DNA of 52,066 bases, from NCBI GenBank assembly GCA_001821555.1, contig MHMM01000005.1, positions 6,956 through 59,021 of the forward strand, read 5' to 3'. The notes below the pieces were generated by a model. The model made no database searches. It saw only the letters and a list, made by a program, of their open reading frames with translations, and was not told where the DNA came from. The translations under genes were made by a program, and so were the position numbers. The number at the start of each line of letters is the position of its first letter. Position 1 is the stretch's first letter. This document shows, one piece after another, positions 648 to 49,998 of the stretch. Origin of the DNA: Candidatus Nealsonbacteria bacterium RIFOXYB1_FULL_40_15. GTDB taxonomy: Bacteria; Patescibacteriota; Minisyncoccia; Minisyncoccales; GWA2-38-27.

Positions 648-1764
648 ATGGATGAAAATCTGGAGAAAATAGAGGAGCTAGAAAAAAGAATCCATCATTT
701 AATGGACTGTCTTTGATGTTGAAAAGATTAAAAAAAGAATAATTAAGATCAGAAAAGAGAGCGAAAGTCCGGATTTTTGGCAGGATCAGGAAAGGGCAAA
801 GTCTTTGAGCAAAGAAATGGCCGATCTTTCAGAAGAGGCCGAAGAGGCCTGCAGGATTTGCAAAGATTTAGATACGGTAAAAGATTTTAAGGCGGTAGAG
901 GACAAAGATATAGAAAAAGAGATGGCCGGAAGAATAGAAAAGCTTGAAAAAGATGTAGGAAAGCAAGAAACCAAAGCTTTTTTATCAGGAAAATATGACA
1001 AAGGAAGCGCGGTTATTGAAATTTCATCGGGGGCCGGAGGAGTGGATGCCCAAGATTGGACAGCTATGCTGTTCAGAATGTATGAGAGATATTGTTCAAA
1101 TAAAGGATTTGAAACAAAGGTTATAAACTGTTCTTACGGGGAGGGAGTGGGGCCCGAAGGAAGAATAGGAATAAAATCAGTTTCATTTGAAGTGAAAGGA
1201 AGGTATGCCTACGGTTTTTTAAAAAAGGAATCGGGAATACACCGGCTTGTAAGGCAATCTCCTTTTTCGGCAAAGGATTTAAGGCACACCTCTTTTGCTT
1301 CTGTCCAAGTAATGCCCGAGATAGAAAAAGAAGACGAAATTGAATTAAAACCCGAGGATTTAAGAATAGATGTATTCAGATCTTCAGGACCCGGAGGGCA
1401 GAATGTGAACAAGAGAGAGACGGCTGTAAGGATTACCCATCTTCCAACCGGAATAGCAGTTGCTTCCCAGTCCGAAAGACTCCAGGGGACAAACAAGGAG
1501 AATGCAATGAGGATACTTTATTCAAAACTGTACCTTATGAAAGAAGAAGAAAAAAAGGAGGAATTAAAAAAGATCAAAGGGGGACAGGTTTCAGCCAGCT
1601 GGGGCAATCAAATAAGATCTTATGTCCTTCATCCTTATAAAATGGTAAAAGATTTGAGGACTCAAATCGAGACCTCTGATGCCGAATCAGTATTGGACGG
1701 AAACATCAATCGCTTTATAGAATCTGAAATAAAGTTAAATGATATCAGTAAAAGATCTGACTAA
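648..1764 (+). CDS. prfB: Peptide chain release factor 2, translated through a programmed +1 frameshift
   Basis: ATG648 reads MDENLEKIEELEKRIHHLMDCL to CTT TGA (711-716); the +1 frame continues DVEKIKKR...PDFWQDQERA into the 805..1764 ORF with SPF and GGQ motifs. Confidence 0.95.
702..717 (+). other. prfB +1 frameshift site (ATG GAC TGT CTT TGA T)
   Basis: CTT-TGA slippery stop at the expected position, about 22 codons into prfB. Confidence 0.9.
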
Positions 1765-2431
1765 AATATATCCCTCAAAGTCATCTGTGCCCGCAGTGGC
1801 TTTAAATGAGGTTTCTTTTGATATAAAAGAGAAGGAATTTGTTTCAATAGTAGGAAAATCGGGGGCGGGCAAAACAACTCTCTTAAAGCTTATCTTAGCA
1901 GAAGAAGAACCGACTAAAGGCCAGATATTTTTCCAGGGACAGGATATAGGGCAGATAAAAAGATCAAAGCTTCCCTTTTTAAGACAAAAACTGGGAGTGG
2001 TTTTTCAAGATTACAAGCTTTTTCCCTCAAAAACGGCCTATGAGAATGTATCATATGTTATGGAAGTGATGGGGGCTTCGGGGGAGGAGATCGAAAGAGA
2101 TGTTCCTAAGGTTTTAGATCTTGTGGGGCTTTCCGATAAGGCGTTTAATCTGCCATCGGAGCTTTCGGGAGGAGAAAGGCAGAGAGTAGCCATAGCCAGG
2201 GCTTTCGTGCACAGGCCGGATGTTATTCTGGCCGACGAGCCTACGGGGAATTTGGATCCTTATAATACTTTTGATATAATTCAGCTATTGATTAAGATAT
2301 ATGAAATGGGCACTACTGTGGTTCTTGCCACTCATGACAAGGAAGTGATTAACAGTCTGGGTAAAAGAGTTATTACTTTAGATCAGGGCAGGGTTGTAAG
2401 AGACGATAAAAAAGGAAGATTCGTTTTATGA
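1739..2431 (+). CDS. ftsE: Cell division ATP-binding protein FtsE
   Basis: Walker A GKSGAGKT, VVFQDYKL, LSGGE, DEPTGNLD; directly upstream of ftsX. Confidence 0.92.
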   Translation: MISVKDLTKIYPSKSSVPAVALNEVSFDIKEKEFVSIVGKSGAGKTTLLKLILAEEEPTKGQIFFQGQDIGQIKRSKLPFLRQKLGVVFQDYKLFPSKTAYENVSYVMEVMGASGEEIERDVPKVLDLVGLSDKAFNLPSELSGGERQRVAIARAFVHRPDVILADEPTGNLDPYNTFDIIQLLIKIYEMGTTVVLATHDKEVINSLGKRVITLDQGRVVRDDKKGRFVL

Positions 2432-3333
2432 ATTTATTTAAAAGAGTACTAAAAAACGGGTGGAAGAATTTCTCGGGCAGTTTCGGCCTAAGCTTTGCGA
2501 CTGTTTTTGTGATGATTTTGGTTATATCCACCATTACCATCCTTTATTTCTTAAATCCTATTTCAGATATGCTTGTAAAAGATGTGGAGGAGAAAGTGGA
2601 TGTTTCCGTTTATTTCAAAGAAGAAACAGATCCCGAAGATATACTAGAAGTTAAATCCGAAATCGTAAAGATTCCCGAAGTGGAGGAAGTCAACTATATA
2701 TCCAAAGAAGAGGCCTTTGAGAGCTTTATGGACAGGCATAAAGAAGACCATATTCTGATAGATTCTTTGGCCGAAGTGGGGTATAATCCTTTTCTTGCTT
2801 CTTTGAGCGTCAAGGCCAAAGAAGCTTCCCGATATGAGCAAGTTGCTGTTTTTCTTGAAACAGGCCCTTTCAAAGAGCTAGTAGATAAAATAGACTATCA
2901 CCAGAGAAAGCCTGTTATTGAGAAAGTCTTTGCGTTTACAAAAGGAGTAAAGAATATAGCATTCTTTTTTAGTATGGTTTTTGGGATAATTGCCTTAATA
3001 ATAGCTTTTAATACAGTAAAGATAGCTATACAGAGCTCCAAAGAAGAAATATCAATTATGCGGCTTGTGGGAGCTTCAAACTGGTTTGTAAGAGGTCCTT
3101 TTATAATTCAAGGGCTAATAGCAGGATCAATAGCCGCTTTAATTACTTTTGTTTTGACTTTTGTTGCCTCCCACTTTCTTGATTCTAACATATCCTCTAT
3201 AATTCCCAGCGTAAGTCTTCTCGGAATATTTAGCTCCAATCTATTGGCATTGCTCTTGATTCAGTTGCTTTCGGGGGCTATACTGGGAACTGCTTCCAGC
3301 TTGATAGCTGTAAGAAAGTATTTGAAGATATAA
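2428..3333 (+). CDS. ftsX: Cell division permease FtsX
   Basis: Four TM helices, extracellular loop, 'EISIMRLVGASNWFVRGPF' motif; ATGA overlap with ftsE. Confidence 0.92.
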   Translation: MNLFKRVLKNGWKNFSGSFGLSFATVFVMILVISTITILYFLNPISDMLVKDVEEKVDVSVYFKEETDPEDILEVKSEIVKIPEVEEVNYISKEEAFESFMDRHKEDHILIDSLAEVGYNPFLASLSVKAKEASRYEQVAVFLETGPFKELVDKIDYHQRKPVIEKVFAFTKGVKNIAFFFSMVFGIIALIIAFNTVKIAIQSSKEEISIMRLVGASNWFVRGPFIIQGLIAGSIAALITFVLTFVASHFLDSNISSIIPSVSLLGIFSSNLLALLLIQLLSGAILGTASSLIAVRKYLKI

Positions 3334-4539: not shown

Positions 4540-5127
4540 ATGTTGCCCAAAGGATCAATCAGCAAAGTTTACGAATATTATTTTACAGAACCTCGTTTTA
4601 AGAACGAAGCATTGCATTCCCTCGAAGAGTTTTTTAATTGTCCGGATTTGTGCGAAGGAGGCGCTATCAATATGGAAAGCGAAAAGGGAGGGGAATTCTT
4701 CAACGAGTGGTTTTTATATGATTTTATTATGAGTAGCGGGCAAACCGTTTTGGAAAATTTTATTGCCGACAACCCACTCGGCTTGAAAGATGCGGAAATG
4801 GAAATTTATCGAAAATTACTCAATAATAAATATGGACTTTTTGAAACTATAAATATAGAAATAGGAAAAAGTATTGCATTGAAAGATTTGCAAACGGGGA
4901 AACGATGGGATGTCAGAGAAAATAAGGCCACTTTTGATCTCAAGAAGGGGGATTTATTTTTTGCCAGAATAGGAGAGGTGGAGGACCATTACGAATTGAT
5001 TGGCTCCGATACTTTTATAATGAGGGATATTGATGGAAACATAGAAAAATCTCTTCGAAATGAAAAGATTAAATTTACACCAAAAATAGTAAACGAGATT
5101 TATCACAACTCCGGGAAACTTAAATAA
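4540..5127 (+). CDS. Hypothetical protein
   Basis: 195-aa ORF 3 nt after parA; no motif recognised with confidence. Confidence 0.7.
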   Translation: MLPKGSISKVYEYYFTEPRFKNEALHSLEEFFNCPDLCEGGAINMESEKGGEFFNEWFLYDFIMSSGQTVLENFIADNPLGLKDAEMEIYRKLLNNKYGLFETINIEIGKSIALKDLQTGKRWDVRENKATFDLKKGDLFFARIGEVEDHYELIGSDTFIMRDIDGNIEKSLRNEKIKFTPKIVNEIYHNSGKLK

Positions 5128-5152: not shown

Positions 5153-5203
5153 GGTTCGAATACTAGCGCCGCAGCAACCTTGAGCGCCCCCAACCCGACC
5201 GAG
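5153..5203 (+). repeat. Degenerate direct repeat of the tRNA-Gln 3' end and flank (3383-3433); att-like
   Basis: ggttcgaatactagcgccgcagcaa vs ggttcgagtcctagtcccgcagcaa (21/25), followed in both copies by CTTGWGC and then CGACCGAG at identical spacing. Confidence 0.7.
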
Positions 5204-5239
5204 AGGGGGTCAAAGAGGCCCGTACCTCTTGAAAACTTG

Positions 5240-5259
5240 CCTGCCTGCCGGCAGGCAGG
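5240..5259. repeat. Perfect 20-bp palindrome CCTGCCTGCCGGCAGGCAGG (REP-like)
   Basis: Directly visible; I recall this as a dispersed repeat in Parcubacteria genomes. Confidence 0.8.
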
Positions 5260-5336
5260 AGCCCGGTCTTTGAGAGGCTCGCCTCGCTAGATCCTACGGC
5301 GAAGCGGGTCGGGCCTCTGCCAACTTTTCCCGACTC

Positions 5337-5379
5337 TTTTCTACTGCCCATTTGGGCAGTTTTGTGTTAGGATAAAACA
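5337..5379 (+). promoter_or_regulatory. Repeated hairpin + extended -10 module, copy 1
   Basis: ACTGCCC-attt-GGGCAGT-TTTGTGT-TAGGAT, then 6 nt to ATG5380. Confidence 0.7.
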
Positions 5380-6153
5380 ATGGTGCCGTTTACCGATAAA
5401 CAGTTAAAAGTTTTAATGAAGCTTGGCCTAAGTGAAATCCAGGCAATTTTATATTTAACATCCTTGAAACATGGCATTCTGTCAGTTTTAGAATTATCAA
5501 AACTTACGAAAATTAACAGACAAAAAATATACGAAGAGTCGGAGAAACTTGTGGAAATGGGTTTGTACGATATAACCAGAAAGCAAAGGAGAAAATATAT
5601 TTCTGCTGTCCCGATGAAATTATTAAAACTTGGCGAAGAAAAAATAAATAAAACTCAAGAAACCCTGAAGGAATTGTCTGGCATTATCCCTCAGCTTGAG
5701 TCTATGCCTGCGAGTAAGAAAAACAAGGTTGTCGTTAAATATTATGAAGGAATAGGTAAAATAAAAGAAGTGTATAAAGAAGAGTTGGAAATGGCTAAAA
5801 ACACAGAGGTGTTATCCTTGGCAGGATCTATTGACGATATATTTAAATTTTTTCCTGAGTCTTATTGGGAAGAATGGAACAAAAAATTCGTTAAGCAAGG
5901 ATCAAAAACCAGAATGTTGGTTCATAAATCAGATGCTGCACGGGAAACAACGGGACATGACAATGATTATAAAAGGGAGACCAGGTATATTGATAATTTC
6001 TCGCTCAAAGTAAATATAGATATTTTCGGAGAAAATGTTTTATTGGTTTCTTTTTATGATGAAATTGCCATATTGATTAATAGTCAAATACTTTCTCAAT
6101 CGTACAGAATAATGTTTGAAACTCTCTGGGGTATGGCAAAATCATTCAAATAA
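5380..6153 (+). CDS. TrmB-family transcriptional regulator
   Basis: N-terminal 'LMKLGLSEIQAILYL..LKHG..SVLELSKLTKINRQKIY' wHTH; 'VKYYEGIGKIKEVY' and C-terminal 'FETLW'. Confidence 0.85.
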   Translation: MVPFTDKQLKVLMKLGLSEIQAILYLTSLKHGILSVLELSKLTKINRQKIYEESEKLVEMGLYDITRKQRRKYISAVPMKLLKLGEEKINKTQETLKELSGIIPQLESMPASKKNKVVVKYYEGIGKIKEVYKEELEMAKNTEVLSLAGSIDDIFKFFPESYWEEWNKKFVKQGSKTRMLVHKSDAARETTGHDNDYKRETRYIDNFSLKVNIDIFGENVLLVSFYDEIAILINSQILSQSYRIMFETLWGMAKSFK

Positions 6154-6315
6154 GAAAAATGTTGTAGAAAACAAACAACAAAATAACCCCTAATTTATAT
6201 TCATTTTAACGTCACAAAAGACGTTTTTTGTTTTTTTATTACGCGAATTTGTAAATGGCATTATTATTATAGCGTAGAGTGGTTTTAATGTTCTTTTGAT
6301 TGGAAAGGAGAAAAC

Positions 6316-6516
6316 ATGCCACCTAGCGGATTTACCCCAAAAGCCGTAGAAGGTGCCCTAACTTTTATAGGGACCTGCTACGAAGATTTGCTGGCAGAGG
6401 TTCGTTCTGGCAAATACAAAAGCATCGAAGAAGGGATTGAGCATGAGCTGGGGCTAATCAAAAAAGCCCTCACGAAGCTTCATCTCGACAATGATGGCAA
6501 CATCACCGAAAGGTGA
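6316..6516 (+). CDS. Small hypothetical protein (66 aa)
   Basis: Strong SD AAAGGAG 5 nt upstream; structured 3' flank. Confidence 0.7.
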   Translation: MPPSGFTPKAVEGALTFIGTCYEDLLAEVRSGKYKSIEEGIEHELGLIKKALTKLHLDNDGNITER

Positions 6517-6526
6517 CATTGTCTCA

Positions 6527-6553
6527 AGACCTGAGTATGTCTGTAAACTACTC
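6527..6553 (+). ncRNA. Putative H-type pseudoknot 3' of the 66-aa gene
   Basis: AGAC(6527-30)/GTCT(6539-42) and GAGTA(6533-37)/TACTC(6549-53), followed by a T-tract. Confidence 0.4.
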
Positions 6554-6560
6554 TTTTTAT

Positions 6561-6947
6561 TTATTCCAATATTATTTTTTTGTCTTTGAGGATTAATTTG
6601 CTTTTGAGGAAATATAGAAGTTCGCGTTTCTCGATAATGGTTCCGTCTTTAAGGAGATATTTTGCATAATTTCTCACATCCACATCCGTATTATTCGGTT
6701 CTTTTTCGTGGCCCAGGACCCCAACTCTGAATTTGTTAAATCTAGCTATTTCCTGCTCTATTTTTGATTTTATTCCAAGTTCATCCAAATCTATCTTATC
6801 CATTAACTCTATAAACTCTTTTATCAAATCTTGCTCATTAATATTCTGATTCTTGCAGTCTATATTCCTGGCCTTGGTGCAGAAGTAATAGACATGGCGG
6901 TTCGTCCCGCCGTTTTTTAGTTTCTTGAATTTCTCATCAGCAAATAT
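6561..6947 (-). pseudogene. C-terminal remnant of a large serine recombinase (Zn-ribbon/coiled-coil part)
   Basis: The frame upstream of the listed ORF reads IFADEKFKKLKNGGTNRHVYYFCTKARNIDCKNQNINEQDLIKEF; catalytic domain and first Cys pair are absent. Confidence 0.7.
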
Positions 6948-6948
6948 G

Positions 6949-6984
6949 AAAGACTGTTTCCCCTCGGGGATAAACAGTCTTTTT
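6949..6984. terminator. Inverted repeat / intrinsic-terminator-like hairpin at the recombinase breakpoint
   Basis: AAAGACTGTTT(6949-59)/AAACAGTCTTT(6972-82) followed by Ts. Confidence 0.6.
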
Positions 6985-7030
6985 CTTTTTGGGATTGGAG
7001 CATTTAGCGATTATTTGGTACAATAAAAAT

Positions 7031-7279
7031 ATGACGATACTGGAAATATCTCAAATAATATATAATCTTGTCTCTGTGGTTGCGATAACTGTGATTACGA
7101 TACTAATTTGCGTAATTGGTTTTGACATAATCAAAATTGTAAGATCAGTTAAAAAGTTCACAAATAATATAAGCAAAGAATCATCCGAGTTATACGAAAA
7201 GATAAGTAAATTTATGGCCGGTATATTAAATCTGTCGTTTATTCCAAAGTTGTTTAATAAGAAAAAGAAGCGGAAATAA
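7031..7279 (+). CDS. Small membrane protein, translationally coupled to the GH3 gene
   Basis: TG-G-TACAAT 6 nt before ATG7031; one TM helix; TAATG overlap with the next gene. Confidence 0.7.
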   Translation: MTILEISQIIYNLVSVVAITVITILICVIGFDIIKIVRSVKKFTNNISKESSELYEKISKFMAGILNLSFIPKLFNKKKKRK

Positions 7280-9108
7280 TGAAAATATTTAGAAGTTTTC
7301 GAAGTTTTAAAGTTCTAGCAATTTTAATTGCCTGTTTTGTGTTAGTCGCGGGAGTTTTGACTTTTGTTTTTTTAAAATTTTCTCCCAATCCAAACCTTAA
7401 TACTCAATATTGCCATGTAGCAGGTTTGCCTTATCAAAATCTGGCGCTGCCAATAGAGGAAAGAGTAGACGACTTAATGAGCAGAATGAACGACTGGGAA
7501 AAAATAGGGCAGATGGCCTTAGTGGAAAAAAACAGTGTTAGTCCTAAGGATGTTACGAAATATAATTTGGGAGCTGTTTTGAGCGGAGGCGGAGCAGGAC
7601 CAAAACAAGACACTCCTTTGGCTTGGCTTGAGATGTTGAATAATTTTCAAGATGCAGCCAACGAGACATGCTTGGGAATACCGCTTTTGTATGGAGTTGA
7701 TGCCATACACGGCCATAGTAATGTTCTTGGAGCCACAATCTTTCCTCACTCTATTGGCTTGGGAGCAACCGGGGACGCAGATTTGGTTAAGCGGGTTGCA
7801 AAAGCAACTGCCGAAGAGGTGGTAGCTACTGGGATTTATTGGAGTTATTCGCCCAATCTTGATGTTGTCACAGACATACGCTGGGGCAAAACCTATGAAA
7901 CATTTGGGTCGGATACGGCAAATGTGAGTAAATTGGGATTGGCTTATCTGGAGGGGACTCAAGGATCTCTAAACGGCTATTTTGAAGTTTTGGCCAACCC
8001 AAAACATTTTATCGGCGGAGGGTCTATGACTTTTGGAACCTCGCGCAATCCAAAATTTAAGGTAGAAGAAGGGGATATAAGAATGGATGAGGAAACATTA
8101 CGCCAAACTCACTTGGTTCCTTTTAGGGCAGTTATAGACGGCGGAGCGCAAGTTATTATGGTGGGTACTGCCAGTTGGAACGGAGAAATAAACTCGGCTA
8201 ATCATCATCTTCTGACAGATATATTAAAAAACGAACTTGGATTTTCGGGGTTTGTTGTTTCTGACTGGTACGGAGTTTATGAGATAGAAAGCAATAAATA
8301 TAACTCTTTGGTCAGAGCGGTAAATGCGGGAATTGATATGGTTATGCTTCCGTTTGAATACAAAAGCTTTATGGGCTATATGCAAAAAGCGGTGTCTAGC
8401 GGCGATATATCCAGGGAGAGGCTAGACGATGCCGTAAGAAGAATCTTAACAGTCAAATTTAAAACAGGTTTATTTGACCGTCCCCGGGCTACCGTAGAAG
8501 GATTGTCTGTCATAGGGAGCAAGGATCATCGTGAATTGGCCCGAGAAGCAGTTCGTAAATCGCAAGTGTTGCTAAAAAACACAAATTCTACCCTGCCCTT
8601 ATCAAAATCATCGGCCAAGATTTTGATCTCCGGGTTTTCAGCAGATAATTTGGGAAGGCAAGCAGGAGGATGGACAACAGAATGGCAAGGCATAGATGGG
8701 AATTATGGAATAGTGGGGACTACCATACTTCAGGCAATAAAGAATACAGTTTCCAAAGACACAGAGATTGTGTTTAACAAGAAGGGCGATTTTTTGACAG
8801 AAAACAATCCGGCAGATGTTGGGATTGTAGTTGTGGGGGAGAAACCTTATGCTGAAGGCTGGGGAGATAAGGACAGTATAACTTTGAGTCCCGAAGATTT
8901 ATCGGCTATAGAAAAAACAAGGGCAAACAGCAAAAAAGTTATAGTTGTTATTGTCTCGGGCAGGCCGATGGATATAGCAAAATATGCAAAAGATTGGGAT
9001 GCGGTGGTGGCTTCGTGGCTTCCGGGTAGCGAAGGCGGGGGAGTGGCAGATGTTTTATTTGGGGAATATCCTTTTGTAGGTTCGCTACCTGTTATATGGG
9101 ACCTATGA
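7279..9108 (+). CDS. Glycoside hydrolase family 3 (beta-glucosidase/exo-glucanase type), N-terminal anchor
   Basis: GIPLLYGVDAIHG, RWGKTYETFG, KHF, GFVVSDW nucleophile, GEKPYAEG, WLPGSEG. Confidence 0.93.
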   Translation: MKIFRSFRSFKVLAILIACFVLVAGVLTFVFLKFSPNPNLNTQYCHVAGLPYQNLALPIEERVDDLMSRMNDWEKIGQMALVEKNSVSPKDVTKYNLGAVLSGGGAGPKQDTPLAWLEMLNNFQDAANETCLGIPLLYGVDAIHGHSNVLGATIFPHSIGLGATGDADLVKRVAKATAEEVVATGIYWSYSPNLDVVTDIRWGKTYETFGSDTANVSKLGLAYLEGTQGSLNGYFEVLANPKHFIGGGSMTFGTSRNPKFKVEEGDIRMDEETLRQTHLVPFRAVIDGGAQVIMVGTASWNGEINSANHHLLTDILKNELGFSGFVVSDWYGVYEIESNKYNSLVRAVNAGIDMVMLPFEYKSFMGYMQKAVSSGDISRERLDDAVRRILTVKFKTGLFDRPRATVEGLSVIGSKDHRELAREAVRKSQVLLKNTNSTLPLSKSSAKILISGFSADNLGRQAGGWTTEWQGIDGNYGIVGTTILQAIKNTVSKDTEIVFNKKGDFLTENNPADVGIVVVGEKPYAEGWGDKDSITLSPEDLSAIEKTRANSKKVIVVIVSGRPMDIAKYAKDWDAVVASWLPGSEGGGVADVLFGEYPFVGSLPVIWDL

Positions 9109-48654: not shown

Positions 48655-48882
48655 TTAGAGTAAATCTATAAATTCGTCTATCGTGAGGCCTGCTTGCAGA
48701 ATGATTGATTTTAAAGTTTTTGGCGCAAGGTCTCTATTGTGATAAGGGATAGTGACTCTTAAATTTAAATTATCGGGATGCCTTAATTGAACATGGCTTC
48801 CCGATTGATGATATTCAAAAAAACCAGCTTTTTTTAAGGCCTTGATTGTCAAGGCAGATGGTATCCGAGGAAGCTTGGGCAC
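48655..48882 (-). CDS. hicA: HicA-family mRNA interferase toxin
   Basis: MPKLP, QSGSHVQL, VTIPYH..DL...TLKSIILQAGL. Confidence 0.9.
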   Translation of the reverse strand: MPKLPRIPSALTIKALKKAGFFEYHQSGSHVQLRHPDNLNLRVTIPYHNRDLAPKTLKSIILQAGLTIDEFIDLL

Positions 48883-48884
48883 AA

Positions 48885-49115
48885 CTAGATGCTTACATTA
48901 ACTGTTCCTTTCTTTTTGGCGCTTTTCAGCATTTTATCTTTAAGTAAAGCTTCAAGATAACACCGAATAGCATCTTTTGCCATTTCTTTCGCCTCTTTAA
49001 GGTTGTTTCCCTCTGTTACAAGACCGGGGAGTTTTGGGACAGTTACTGTATATCCTTGGCCGTTATTTTCAAAAACTACCTCAAAGTTATAGATTGTTTG
49101 TTTTCTTTGCTTCAT
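48885..49115 (-). CDS. hicB: HicB-family antitoxin (short form, no DNA-binding domain)
   Basis: GYTVTVPKLPGLVTEGNNLKEAKEMAKDAI; true start ATG49115 after TG-A-TATAAT. Confidence 0.88.
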   Translation of the reverse strand: MKQRKQTIYNFEVVFENNGQGYTVTVPKLPGLVTEGNNLKEAKEMAKDAIRCYLEALLKDKMLKSAKKKGTVNVSI

Positions 49116-49237
49116 ATTTTTTATTATATCAAAATAACAGGTTATAATCAAATTAAAAATATCCGCACTAATTGTGAGGGATTTTTTAATCCTTGCTTTA
49201 CCGGAATAATTGAATATAATGTAAATAGCACGTTTTT

Positions 49238-49372
49238 GGGGCCGTAGCTCAGTTGGTAGAGCACAAGGTGAGCTCATTCTCGCTAACCAAGCTTGCAAGC
49301 GCTGGTTCAAATGAAAATTTGAATCAAGATGAGTGAGGCTTGAGGTCGTGGGTTCGAATCCCGCCGGCTCCA
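49238..49372 (+). tRNA. tRNA-Ala-like gene (G3:U70, A73) with about 62 extra nt in the anticodon arm
   Basis: Acceptor GGGGCCG/CGGCTCC-A, D-arm GCTC-AGTTGGTA-GAGC, variable AGGTC, T-arm GTGGG-TTCGAAT-CCCGC; 71 nt between CAAG and CTTG. Confidence 0.8.
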
Positions 49373-49396: not shown

Positions 49397-49430
49397 AAAA
49401 AGAGCCTCTTATTCTTAGGGGCTCTTTTTT
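49397..49430. terminator. Bidirectional terminator between the tRNA-like gene and efp
   Basis: AAAAAGAGCC...GGCTCTTTTT. Confidence 0.75.
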
Positions 49431-49998
49431 ATTTCTTTTCTATCCTTCTTACGTATTCTTCCTTTTCCGTATTTATTTCTATAGTATCGCCCTCTTCTAT
49501 AAAGAGAGGAACCTGTATTTCAGCTCCTGTTTCTAATTTAACGGTCTTTGTTCCGCCTTGCGCCCTGTCTCCTTTTATTCCCGGAGGAGCTTCTTTCACC
49601 GCAAGCTCCATTTTGATCGGAGTTGATATGCTGATGATTCTGTCTTCATAAACTAGTCCGTCCACTTCAATATTAGATTTTAAGAATTTAAAAGCGCTCC
49701 CTATCTGTTCTTTTGACAGTTCAAACCTTTCGGAGGGTTTGTCAGGGTAGCAGAACACATATTTATCTTTATTTGAATATATAAACTTTATAACCGTTCT
49801 CTCAAGTTCGGCTTCTTCAAAAATATCTCCCTGATGGAAATTTCTTTCAAATACATTTCCTGTCACCAGATTCTTTATCTTTGTTTGAATGACAACTCTC
49901 CTTTGGGCTTTTTTCATAGGCATGGACCATAAAACCTCGTAGGGTTGCCCGTCTATTATAATCCTTATTCCTTTTCTTAATTCCGAATGTGAAATCAT
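49429..49998 (-). CDS. efp: Elongation factor P
   Basis: ELRKG...DGQPYEV, KIKNLVTG, PPGIKGDRAQGGTK...LETGAEIQVPLFIEEGD...YVRR. Confidence 0.93.
   Translation of the reverse strand: MISHSELRKGIRIIIDGQPYEVLWSMPMKKAQRRVVIQTKIKNLVTGNVFERNFHQGDIFEEAELERTVIKFIYSNKDKYVFCYPDKPSERFELSKEQIGSAFKFLKSNIEVDGLVYEDRIISISTPIKMELAVKEAPPGIKGDRAQGGTKTVKLETGAEIQVPLFIEEGDTIEINTEKEEYVRRIEKK

Follow-up and report, generated by a model that had tools for sequence, protein, structure and literature searches.

An alanine-type tRNA-like gene with a folded domain in place of its anticodon arm in a Candidatus Nealsonbacteria genome: a candidate non-decoding, alanine-chargeable RNA

The window analyzed here, a stretch of 52,066 nucleotides from contig MHMM01000005.1 of Candidatus Nealsonbacteria bacterium RIFOXYB1_FULL_40_15 (assembly GCA_001821555.1), carries on its plus strand at positions 49238-49372 a 135-nt gene, which reads as a tRNA body with an enlarged anticodon arm. 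The Rfam tRNA model RF00005 matched it over the full model (positions 1-71) with 52.7 bits (gathering score 29, E 1.5e-08), and ARAGORN in default mode did not report it in the window. The acceptor strand GGGGCCG (49238-49244) pairs with CGGCTCC (49365-49371), including G3:T70; the alanine identity elements are present as G 49240 : T 49369, corresponding to G3:U70, and as A73 at 49372, and the gene does not encode the 3' CCA. The D arm (49247-49262) consists of GCTC / AGTTGGTA / GAGC and the T arm (49348-49364) of GTGGG / TTCGAAT / CCCGC, all body stems being completely paired (acceptor 7/7, D 4/4, T 5/5). These arms, G3:U70 and A73 had been described in the original prediction, which was made from the letters alone, and they were borne out by the sequence and the Rfam match; the same holds for the 71 nt that it had counted between CAAG (49264-49267) and CTTG (49339-49342), where a tRNA normally has 9. 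Canonical bacterial tRNA-Ala, as represented by the GGGG-type UGC genes of the family members G008, G013 and G019, has the same body with G3:U70 and A73 and occurs in the same kind of genomic slots, but its anticodon arm is 17 and not 79 nt long, and the 135-nt gene has no anticodon in a canonical loop.

A decoding tRNA-Ala would be expected to have an anticodon stem of 5 bp and a loop of 7 nt with U33, a purine at position 37 and an Ala anticodon, and the arm offers no such structure. The minimum free energy (MFE) fold of the 135-mer reached -53.4 kcal/mol (z -3.49, equaled by 0/200 shuffles) with the acceptor, D and T arms kept, and the insert alone was moderately structured (z -2.70, 4/200 shuffles folding as well). 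In the ensemble, the 3' CUUG paired with an internal CAAG (49288-49291) with a probability of 0.82-0.93 and with the 5' CAAG with a probability of 0.014; the best fold retaining the latter CAAG/CUUG pairing had -51.0 kcal/mol, which is 2.4 above the MFE. The fold originally drawn by eye was not preferred, reaching, as encoded, only -36.9 kcal/mol compared to the MFE. Its hairpin TTCAAAT-GAAA-ATTTGAA proved real, although longer than claimed: an A/U hairpin of 10 bp with a GAAA loop, which was the single robust element of the insert and which excludes the CCA/TGG hairpin that had been proposed to display TGC. Both CAAG and GTGAG are found twice within the insert region, which suggests duplication or slippage, and the internal CCAAGCTTGCAAG resembles the anticodon stem and loop of tRNA-Ala(UGC) in degenerate form; the normal anticodon arms of the family have the loop TTTGCAC. 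No second copy of the insert was found in the host genome, BLAST of the 135-mer against 61 genomes (the host and 60 relatives) gave matches confined to the tRNA arms, a metagenome scan for the GGGG-type body with a long gap produced four loci, none of them related to the insert, and comparison of the arms with phage and genome long-arm loci revealed no homologue.

An own promoter had been predicted, of which the TATAAT hexamer is present (Table 1), but a consensus scan of the plus strand called no full sigma-70 promoter for the gene; the -35 candidate TTGCTT (49193-49198) matches the consensus in 3/6 positions with a 16-nt spacer to the hexamer. The predicted downstream terminator was found as well, with 13 pairs followed by a T run, and is common to the 135-nt gene and efp (49429-49998, minus strand), which lie tail-to-tail; efp is followed by fmt. 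Directly upstream of the tRNA-like gene is a hicA/hicB toxin-antitoxin pair (48655-49115, minus strand) with a promoter-like site near it (49151-49123, minus strand), and this pair is absent from the corresponding position in the relatives G003 and G011. A mobile-element or prophage origin was rejected, the neighbors being housekeeping genes and the body type being native to the family. One contig from each of three runs belonging to three studies spans the gene with 0 differences (X5 record 14, X7 record 25, X11 record 3), and at least one of these contigs may itself be the source of the window DNA; the joints seen in this comparison were ordinary tRNAs of other organisms. Because the gene is identical in the contigs of three studies, it is not an assembly artifact.

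Table 1. Features of the 135-nt tRNA-like gene and its flanks (positions of the window)
Feature	Position	Strand	Remarks
TATAAT hexamer	49215-49220	+	17 nt 5' of the mature end; possible -10 element; sequence reading
5' body half	49238-49263	+	acceptor strand GGGGCCG, U8 A9, complete D arm, N26; Rfam tRNA match
Arm replacement	49264-49342	+	79 nt in place of the 17-nt anticodon arm
Internal CCAAGCTTGCAAG	49287-49299	+	resembles a degenerate tRNA-Ala(UGC) anticodon stem-loop; TGC at 49294-49296
10-bp A/U-rich hairpin TGGTTCAAAT / ATTTGAATCA with GAAA tetraloop	49303-49326	+	present in MFE, centroid and constrained fold
3' body half	49343-49372	+	variable loop AGGTC, T arm, acceptor strand CGGCTCC with U70, A73
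Intrinsic terminator-like hairpin	49397-49429	+	13 pairs, 5 of them G-C; located between an A run and a T run

The host, a groundwater bacterium and, to judge by its genome size and gene content, probably a member of the candidate phyla radiation (CPR) or Patescibacteria, has a genome of 761,172 bases in 21 contigs (approximately 39% G+C, 99.12% complete), in which ARAGORN identified 49 tRNA genes. Ordinary tRNA-Ala genes elsewhere in the genome, whose presence the original prediction had wanted to see checked, were found among them with the anticodons CGC, UGC and GGC, and the 135-nt gene is therefore an extra Ala-type gene. The RF00005 search over the whole genome gave 49 matches, did not list the 135-nt gene and provided no census of long tRNA-like genes, for which reason a custom scan was made; it returned the 135-nt gene as the sole aberrant tRNA-like, and four further candidates were not tRNA-like. 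The host genes for tRNA-Ala(CGC) (C9:18509-18582) and tRNA-Ala(GGC) (C17:39185-39258) have unusual D arms with GTAA...TTAC stems and diverge from the typical tRNA-Ala of the family more than the 135-nt gene does. Another tRNA of the host (C6:9235-9311, minus strand) combines an Ile-like body, whose acceptor is that of tRNA-Ile GAU, with the canonical loop TT-TTA-AA, which makes its anticodon ochre-suppressor-like; it was labeled tRNA-Stop(tta) by ARAGORN and scored 45.3 bits with the Rfam tRNA model.

An intron had been one of the two options of the original prediction, and removal of one or two inserts would in this case produce a decoding tRNA-Ala(UGC) or tRNA-Ala(AGC). Such a gene would resemble the intron-containing tRNA genes with group I introns in bacteria or bulge-helix-bulge introns in archaea, which likewise have extra sequence in the anticodon arm. 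The insert does hold CTTGCAA, a perfect anticodon-loop sequence of Ala(UGC), beside the second CAAG, and the MFE fold pairs this internal CAAG with the 3' CTTG. However, none of 18 single excisions left U33 in the loop, and no combination of two cuts produced an Ala anticodon loop on a stem of 5 bp. The proposed ARAGORN run with introns allowed gave just a tRNA-Phe(gaa) interrupted by a 43-nt intron, which is implausible, no group I, other intron or ribozyme family was matched in Rfam at E<=1, and the splicing endonuclease EndA (PF01974) and RtcB (PF01139) were not found in the 99.12%-complete genome. A helix-bulge-helix of the strand arrangement generally required was not seen by eye, and the closed hairpin arms of 16-28 nt present in the relatives (see below) cannot be introns. 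The intron explanation is thus very improbable.

Even less credit can be given to a miniature rescue RNA of the transfer-messenger RNA (tmRNA) type, in which an Ala-charged tRNA-like domain would be combined with a short internal frame; this reading is effectively refuted already. Like tmRNA, the 135-nt gene has the alanine identity by G3:U70, a T arm and tRNA-like halves separated by a large insertion, the Rfam tmRNA model aligned its tRNA-like domain on the gene with 32.3 bits, and GCT-initial frames can be read by eye in the insert. This score, however, is below the gathering score of 47, ARAGORN in tmRNA mode found nothing at this position, and the genome possesses, at C13:33519-34295, a genuine tmRNA (103.2 bits) directly after smpB. 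Besides, tmRNA is a molecule of approximately 350 nt without a full D arm, in contrast to the 135 nt and the full D arm of the present gene, in which no tag frame or pseudoknots were recognized. In the literature outside subscription journals, no account was found of tRNA introns in the CPR or of anticodon-less Ala tRNA-like RNAs.

A relaxed body pattern, which like the other patterns demanded that D arm, T loop and acceptor ends be intact, was run on 39 genomes of the family, including the host, and detected the GGGG-type Ala body in 11 of them: four with a normal Ala anticodon (UGC in G008, G013 and G029, CGC in G031) and seven with an aberrant arm. With the strict pattern, 2/301 sampled genomes of the order were positive, both from this family. 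A covariance model (R1) was non-specific, all tRNAs scoring 60-80 bits, and exposed the genes of G005 and G012. The aberrant arms comprise 79 nt in the host, 55 nt in G005 (a 112-nt gene), 28 nt in G011, 22 nt in G012, 18 nt in G035, 17 nt in G003 and 16 nt in G018, and all seven genes have fully paired acceptor (7/7), D (4/4) and T (5/5) stems. The five short arms were folded by RNAfold as closed hairpins with outer stems of 6-8 bp and terminal loops of 3-8 nt; their energies ranged from -6.2 to -11.4 kcal/mol, compared to -2.7 to -4.8 for four UGC arms, -4.3 for the CGC arm and -8.1 for the GGC arm of G034. Body positions left free in the pattern (5:68, 6:67, 7:66, 50:64 and 51:63) were paired in 6/6 sequences with 2-4 pair types, a sign of covariation within the body. 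ARAGORN labeled the aberrant genes of the relatives as Lys(ttt), Stop(tta), Asn(att) or '???'. The search for orthologs recommended in the original prediction succeeded in part: six other genomes have Ala-type bodies with non-canonical arms, but none has a homologue of the insert.

A tRNA gene convergent with efp was present at 3/30 efp loci, i.e., in the host, G003 and G011, and the remaining 27 loci, two of which are truncated, had none. In G018 the aberrant gene is located beside fmt, and efp was not found there; the tRNA genes in the efp/fmt slot were aberrant in 4/4 cases and normal in none. The slot just downstream of tRNA-Arg(TCG) was occupied by normal UGC genes in G008, G013 and G019, by a normal GGC gene in G034 and by aberrant genes in G035 and G012; since it holds normal genes in four genomes and aberrant ones in two, the loss of the loop is derived and recurrent. 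A comparison of 13 sequences showed that the host gene shares 79-91% of 48 body positions with six genes having an Ala anticodon, and the resemblance of ordinary Ala genes of other family members to it points to a body type that is native to the family. Because of this, and because the aberrant bodies form no separate cluster, loss of the anticodon loop is, judging from the sequences at hand, recurrent in the family.

The close relatives G012 and G034 are nearly identical in the flanks and in tRNA-Arg (L220 vs L223), yet their genes in the Ala slot differ throughout: the gene of the former, Ala-type and 80 nt long, forms an 8-bp stem and a 6-nt loop, that of the latter is a normal tRNA-Ala(GGC), and both are fully paired. 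Such a combination of near-identical flanks with very different but fully paired genes indicates a probable allele replacement instead of gradual drift. The copy in G029 (L222, G029:C28:12214-12287), a GGGG-type tRNA-Ala(UGC) with a normal loop, has only 5/7 acceptor pairs, was not called by ARAGORN and resembles a copy of this gene type that is undergoing ordinary decay.

Two explanations compete for this pattern. According to one of them, a redundant copy of the tRNA-Ala(UGC) type lost its loop by insertion or duplication, is functionless and will eventually be deleted; such a neutralized duplicate may still be transcribed and charged, and any selection would act only against decoding. The three normal tRNA-Ala genes of the host provide the redundancy, the distribution is patchy with each aberrant arm being species-specific, and the singleton insert with its internal repeats and a degenerate anticodon-arm copy suggests duplication or slippage. 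The G029 copy represents classical decay of the same gene type, the tRNA-Arg slot contains normal genes (G008, G013, G019 and G034) as well as aberrant ones (G035 and G012), and neither a partner protein nor a specific co-occurrence with FemAB was found. It is less easily reconciled with the complete pairing of the body stems in 7/7 aberrant genes, although ascertainment favors this result, and with the all-aberrant efp/fmt slot, which is explained more simply if the gene was aberrant in an ancestor already and its body has since been conserved in four genera. Furthermore, the genomes are small (0.3-0.8 Mb) with short intergenic regions, the other efp loci show no trace of a decayed copy, and the G012 allele is a well-formed replacement and not a drifted copy. 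The original prediction had argued that the ordered insert speaks against decay; with the insert being unique, this argument finds no support, and a neutralized duplicate, which we regard as a serious possibility, stays a close rival of the explanation that we put first.

The latter, preferred tentatively and with less than an even chance, is a non-decoding, alanine-chargeable tRNA-like RNA which is retained for its body. The alanyl-tRNA synthetase (AlaRS) recognizes its tRNA by the acceptor stem, ignoring the anticodon, and a tRNA-Ala body can therefore lose its anticodon and yet be charged, being among the few tRNA bodies with this ability. The RNA encoded at 49238-49372 can probably still be loaded with alanine, and codon reading by it would not be possible. 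In the proposed sequence of events, the gene would be an extra tRNA-Ala paralogue in which a 79-nt folded domain has replaced the 17-nt arm; its RNA would be made as an independent transcript, matured by RNase P and by 3' processing, supplied with CCA, charged by AlaRS via the acceptor stem and, when charged, unable to decode on the ribosome. It would represent one of the recurrent anticodon-disabled Ala-tRNA-like RNAs of the family, kept for the body. Retention for a non-decoding role is suggested by the seven intact bodies and the all-aberrant efp/fmt slot across four genera, and likewise by the closed hairpins, the dedicated terminator and the compact genomes. A chargeable RNA with a non-decoding job had been the second option of the original prediction, and it fits the three ordinary tRNA-Ala genes and the six relatives.

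Several observations weigh against such retention. A search for RNA runs containing the locus listed none, and expression, processing and charging of the 135-nt RNA are predictions. No aberrant arm is common to two species, which leaves a long-term upkeep of any arm unsupported, and selection on the insert is equally unsupported, the insert being a singleton, identical in the strains of three studies. The gene is dispensable, 27/30 efp loci being without it and 28/39 genomes without the GGGG-type body. The intact bodies are in part a matter of ascertainment because the patterns demand an intact body, the acceptor of G029 (5/7) demonstrates that ordinary decay also happens, and in the identity matrix the aberrant bodies do not cluster apart from the normal ones. 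Template switching in quasi-palindromes can make perfect closed hairpins without selection. No partner gene was identified for the aberrant RNAs, and FemAB is present in 37/39 family genomes compared to 7/39 with aberrant RNAs, i.e., there is no specific co-occurrence. Finally, a control for Ala specificity in phage contigs gave long central domains with U70 at 86 loci and with C70 at 49 loci, and arms of normal length at no fewer than 119 loci with each.

A further step, donation of alanine from the charged RNA to a non-ribosomal acceptor, such as a peptidoglycan transferase of the FemAB family, is the weakest of all and doubtful at best. In the host, an open frame of 376 aa on C17 matches the FemAB family in three stretches. 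FemX uses Ala-tRNA with G1-C72 and G2-C71 as determinants (PMC2175331), and both are present in the 135-nt gene; together with the FemAB frame, they make this enzyme a possible acceptor for the alanyl-RNA. The same pairs are found in the normal tRNA-Ala genes of the host and are, therefore, non-discriminating. In the search for other alanine users, an aminoacyl-lipid synthase was not found in the host genome, and an RqcH-type NFACT_N domain gave a match of 30.1 bits, which is under its cut-off. The nearest precedents for a chargeable non-translational tRNA are the non-proteogenic tRNA-Gly of Staphylococcus aureus, set apart from translation (PMC7826273), and the FemX substrate; the host resembles them in having a FemAB-family gene and the G1-C72 and G2-C71 pairs. 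The S. aureus tRNA-Gly, however, has a normal loop and is excluded via features of the D and T arms, in contrast to the 135-nt gene, where the loop itself is gone. The pseudo-tRNA tRNAOther of Bacillus cereus, which has no function in translation and may matter to the cell (PMC3399842), is likewise a tRNA-shaped gene outside translation, but differs in identity and organism.

The tRNA body may alternatively serve for stability and processing of a scaffold or decoy RNA, with the inserted domain binding a partner protein, in parallel to the Ro60-associated tRNA-like Y RNAs, or as a decoy against tRNA-targeting toxins or phage factors. This is improbable for the 135-nt gene, although long Ala-type tRNA-like architecture, as far as pattern matches can tell, is used elsewhere. 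In other lineages, un-permuted Ala-type bodies with central domains of 35-65 nt adjoin Ro60 orthologues or DUF2828/DUF7788 genes, phage contigs contained 34 and 86 loci matching the same kind of pattern, and in the window the hicAB pair is situated immediately upstream. However, profile searches revealed no TROVE, vWA_Ro60 or DUF2828 gene in the host (PF05731, PF25045 and PF11443, no match at E<=0.1), and Ro60 and DUF2828 systems therefore do not explain the gene. The neighbors of the aberrant loci in the relatives are different (hicAB, SDR-like, zincin-like and CCA-adding-like open reading frames, ORFs, named by eye), and the insert is dissimilar to all other long arms compared. An identity as a Y RNA of the YrlA type was rejected for the absence of the same protein families and the score of 17.7 bits with the YrlA model, compared to a gathering score of 69. 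The YrlA Y RNAs consist of a tRNA-like domain and a Ro-binding stem and need a Ro60 partner (PMC4201824); they are similar to the 135-nt gene in joining an acceptor/D/T module to a second structured module, but end in the Ro-binding stem and have a loop-closed acceptor stem, unlike the open-ended 135-nt gene.

The long Ala-type tRNA-like RNAs encountered in other lineages deserve a separate description; Rfam labeled the 16 that were tested as tRNA only. The loci adjacent to Ro60 belong to Chloroflexia, Janthinobacterium, an uncultured proteobacterium metagenome-assembled genome (MAG) and Longimicrobiaceae (L080:5459-5567 with the ORF 5728-7515; L103:767-875 and 1009-1128 with the ORF 1314-3092; L101:6399-6510; L078:2896-3018 and 2316-2439). 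Their RNAs, often in two copies, have open GGGG...CTCCA ends, G3:U70 and a conserved central domain CATCGCCGC...hairpin...GGGCCG...GGATGGTTATC, and the Ro60 orthologues consist of TROVE and vWA_Ro60 with E down to 1e-65; the RNAs look like Y RNAs with a topology unlike that of YrlA. A family in Firmicutes with the shared GGAG.TTTGACAAAA.CTC is positioned upstream of DUF2828 and DUF7788 proteins (L120:1531-1643 with the ORF 1729-3315; L126:4846-4962, 4999-5109 and 5168-5282 with the ORF 5362-6924), a Lachnospiraceae locus having three tandem copies. In Bacteroidota (Bacteroides and Flavobacterium), a conserved tRNA-like of approximately 120 nt with Ala-type ends (L071:6878-6997, L128:2953-3072, L097:3923-4041, L129:1205-1321) is found just upstream of a conserved protein of approximately 746 aa, for which a weak Prok-RING_4 match was the sole one. 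In a Parcubacteria MAG, a 124-nt Ala-type match (L070:7744-7867) lies inside a large subunit rRNA match (6407-8000), a region that Rfam aligned to the first 1287 positions of 23S rRNA, and this tRNA-like possibly represents an insertion into the rRNA gene. The IMG/VR phage loci (L227-L340) include 34 with a gap of 61-91 and 86 with a gap of 30-60; most have acceptor 7/7 and T 5/5, and their inserts are very diverse. The C70 control pattern gave 49 loci.

In a broader and unlikely version of the favored explanation, this CPR family would maintain anticodon-less, alanine-charged RNAs that act outside decoding and would exchange them by allele replacement, the bodies being under selection and the arm at liberty to turn into a closed hairpin or a large new domain. 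Their roles might be, for example, those of dedicated donors of alanine for transfer to the cell wall or to other non-ribosomal acceptors, or of regulators or decoys of factors that bind tRNA, with the 135-nt RNA as the most elaborate of them. Joined with the Ro60-associated Ala-type RNAs of other phyla and those of phages, they would make the open-ended alanine-accepting body a general scaffold for non-coding RNA. Genes of this kind are missed or mislabeled by standard tRNA finders, ARAGORN taking them for Lys, Asn, Stop or Phe. If they are neutralized duplicates, they show how a copy that would misinsert alanine is disarmed by closing the anticodon loop. If they are expressed and alanylated, organisms with minimal genomes would possess natural anticodon-less aminoacyl carriers, and, should this be true, both the partition of aminoacyl-tRNA between translation and other uses and the origin of tRNA-derived non-coding RNAs would become testable.

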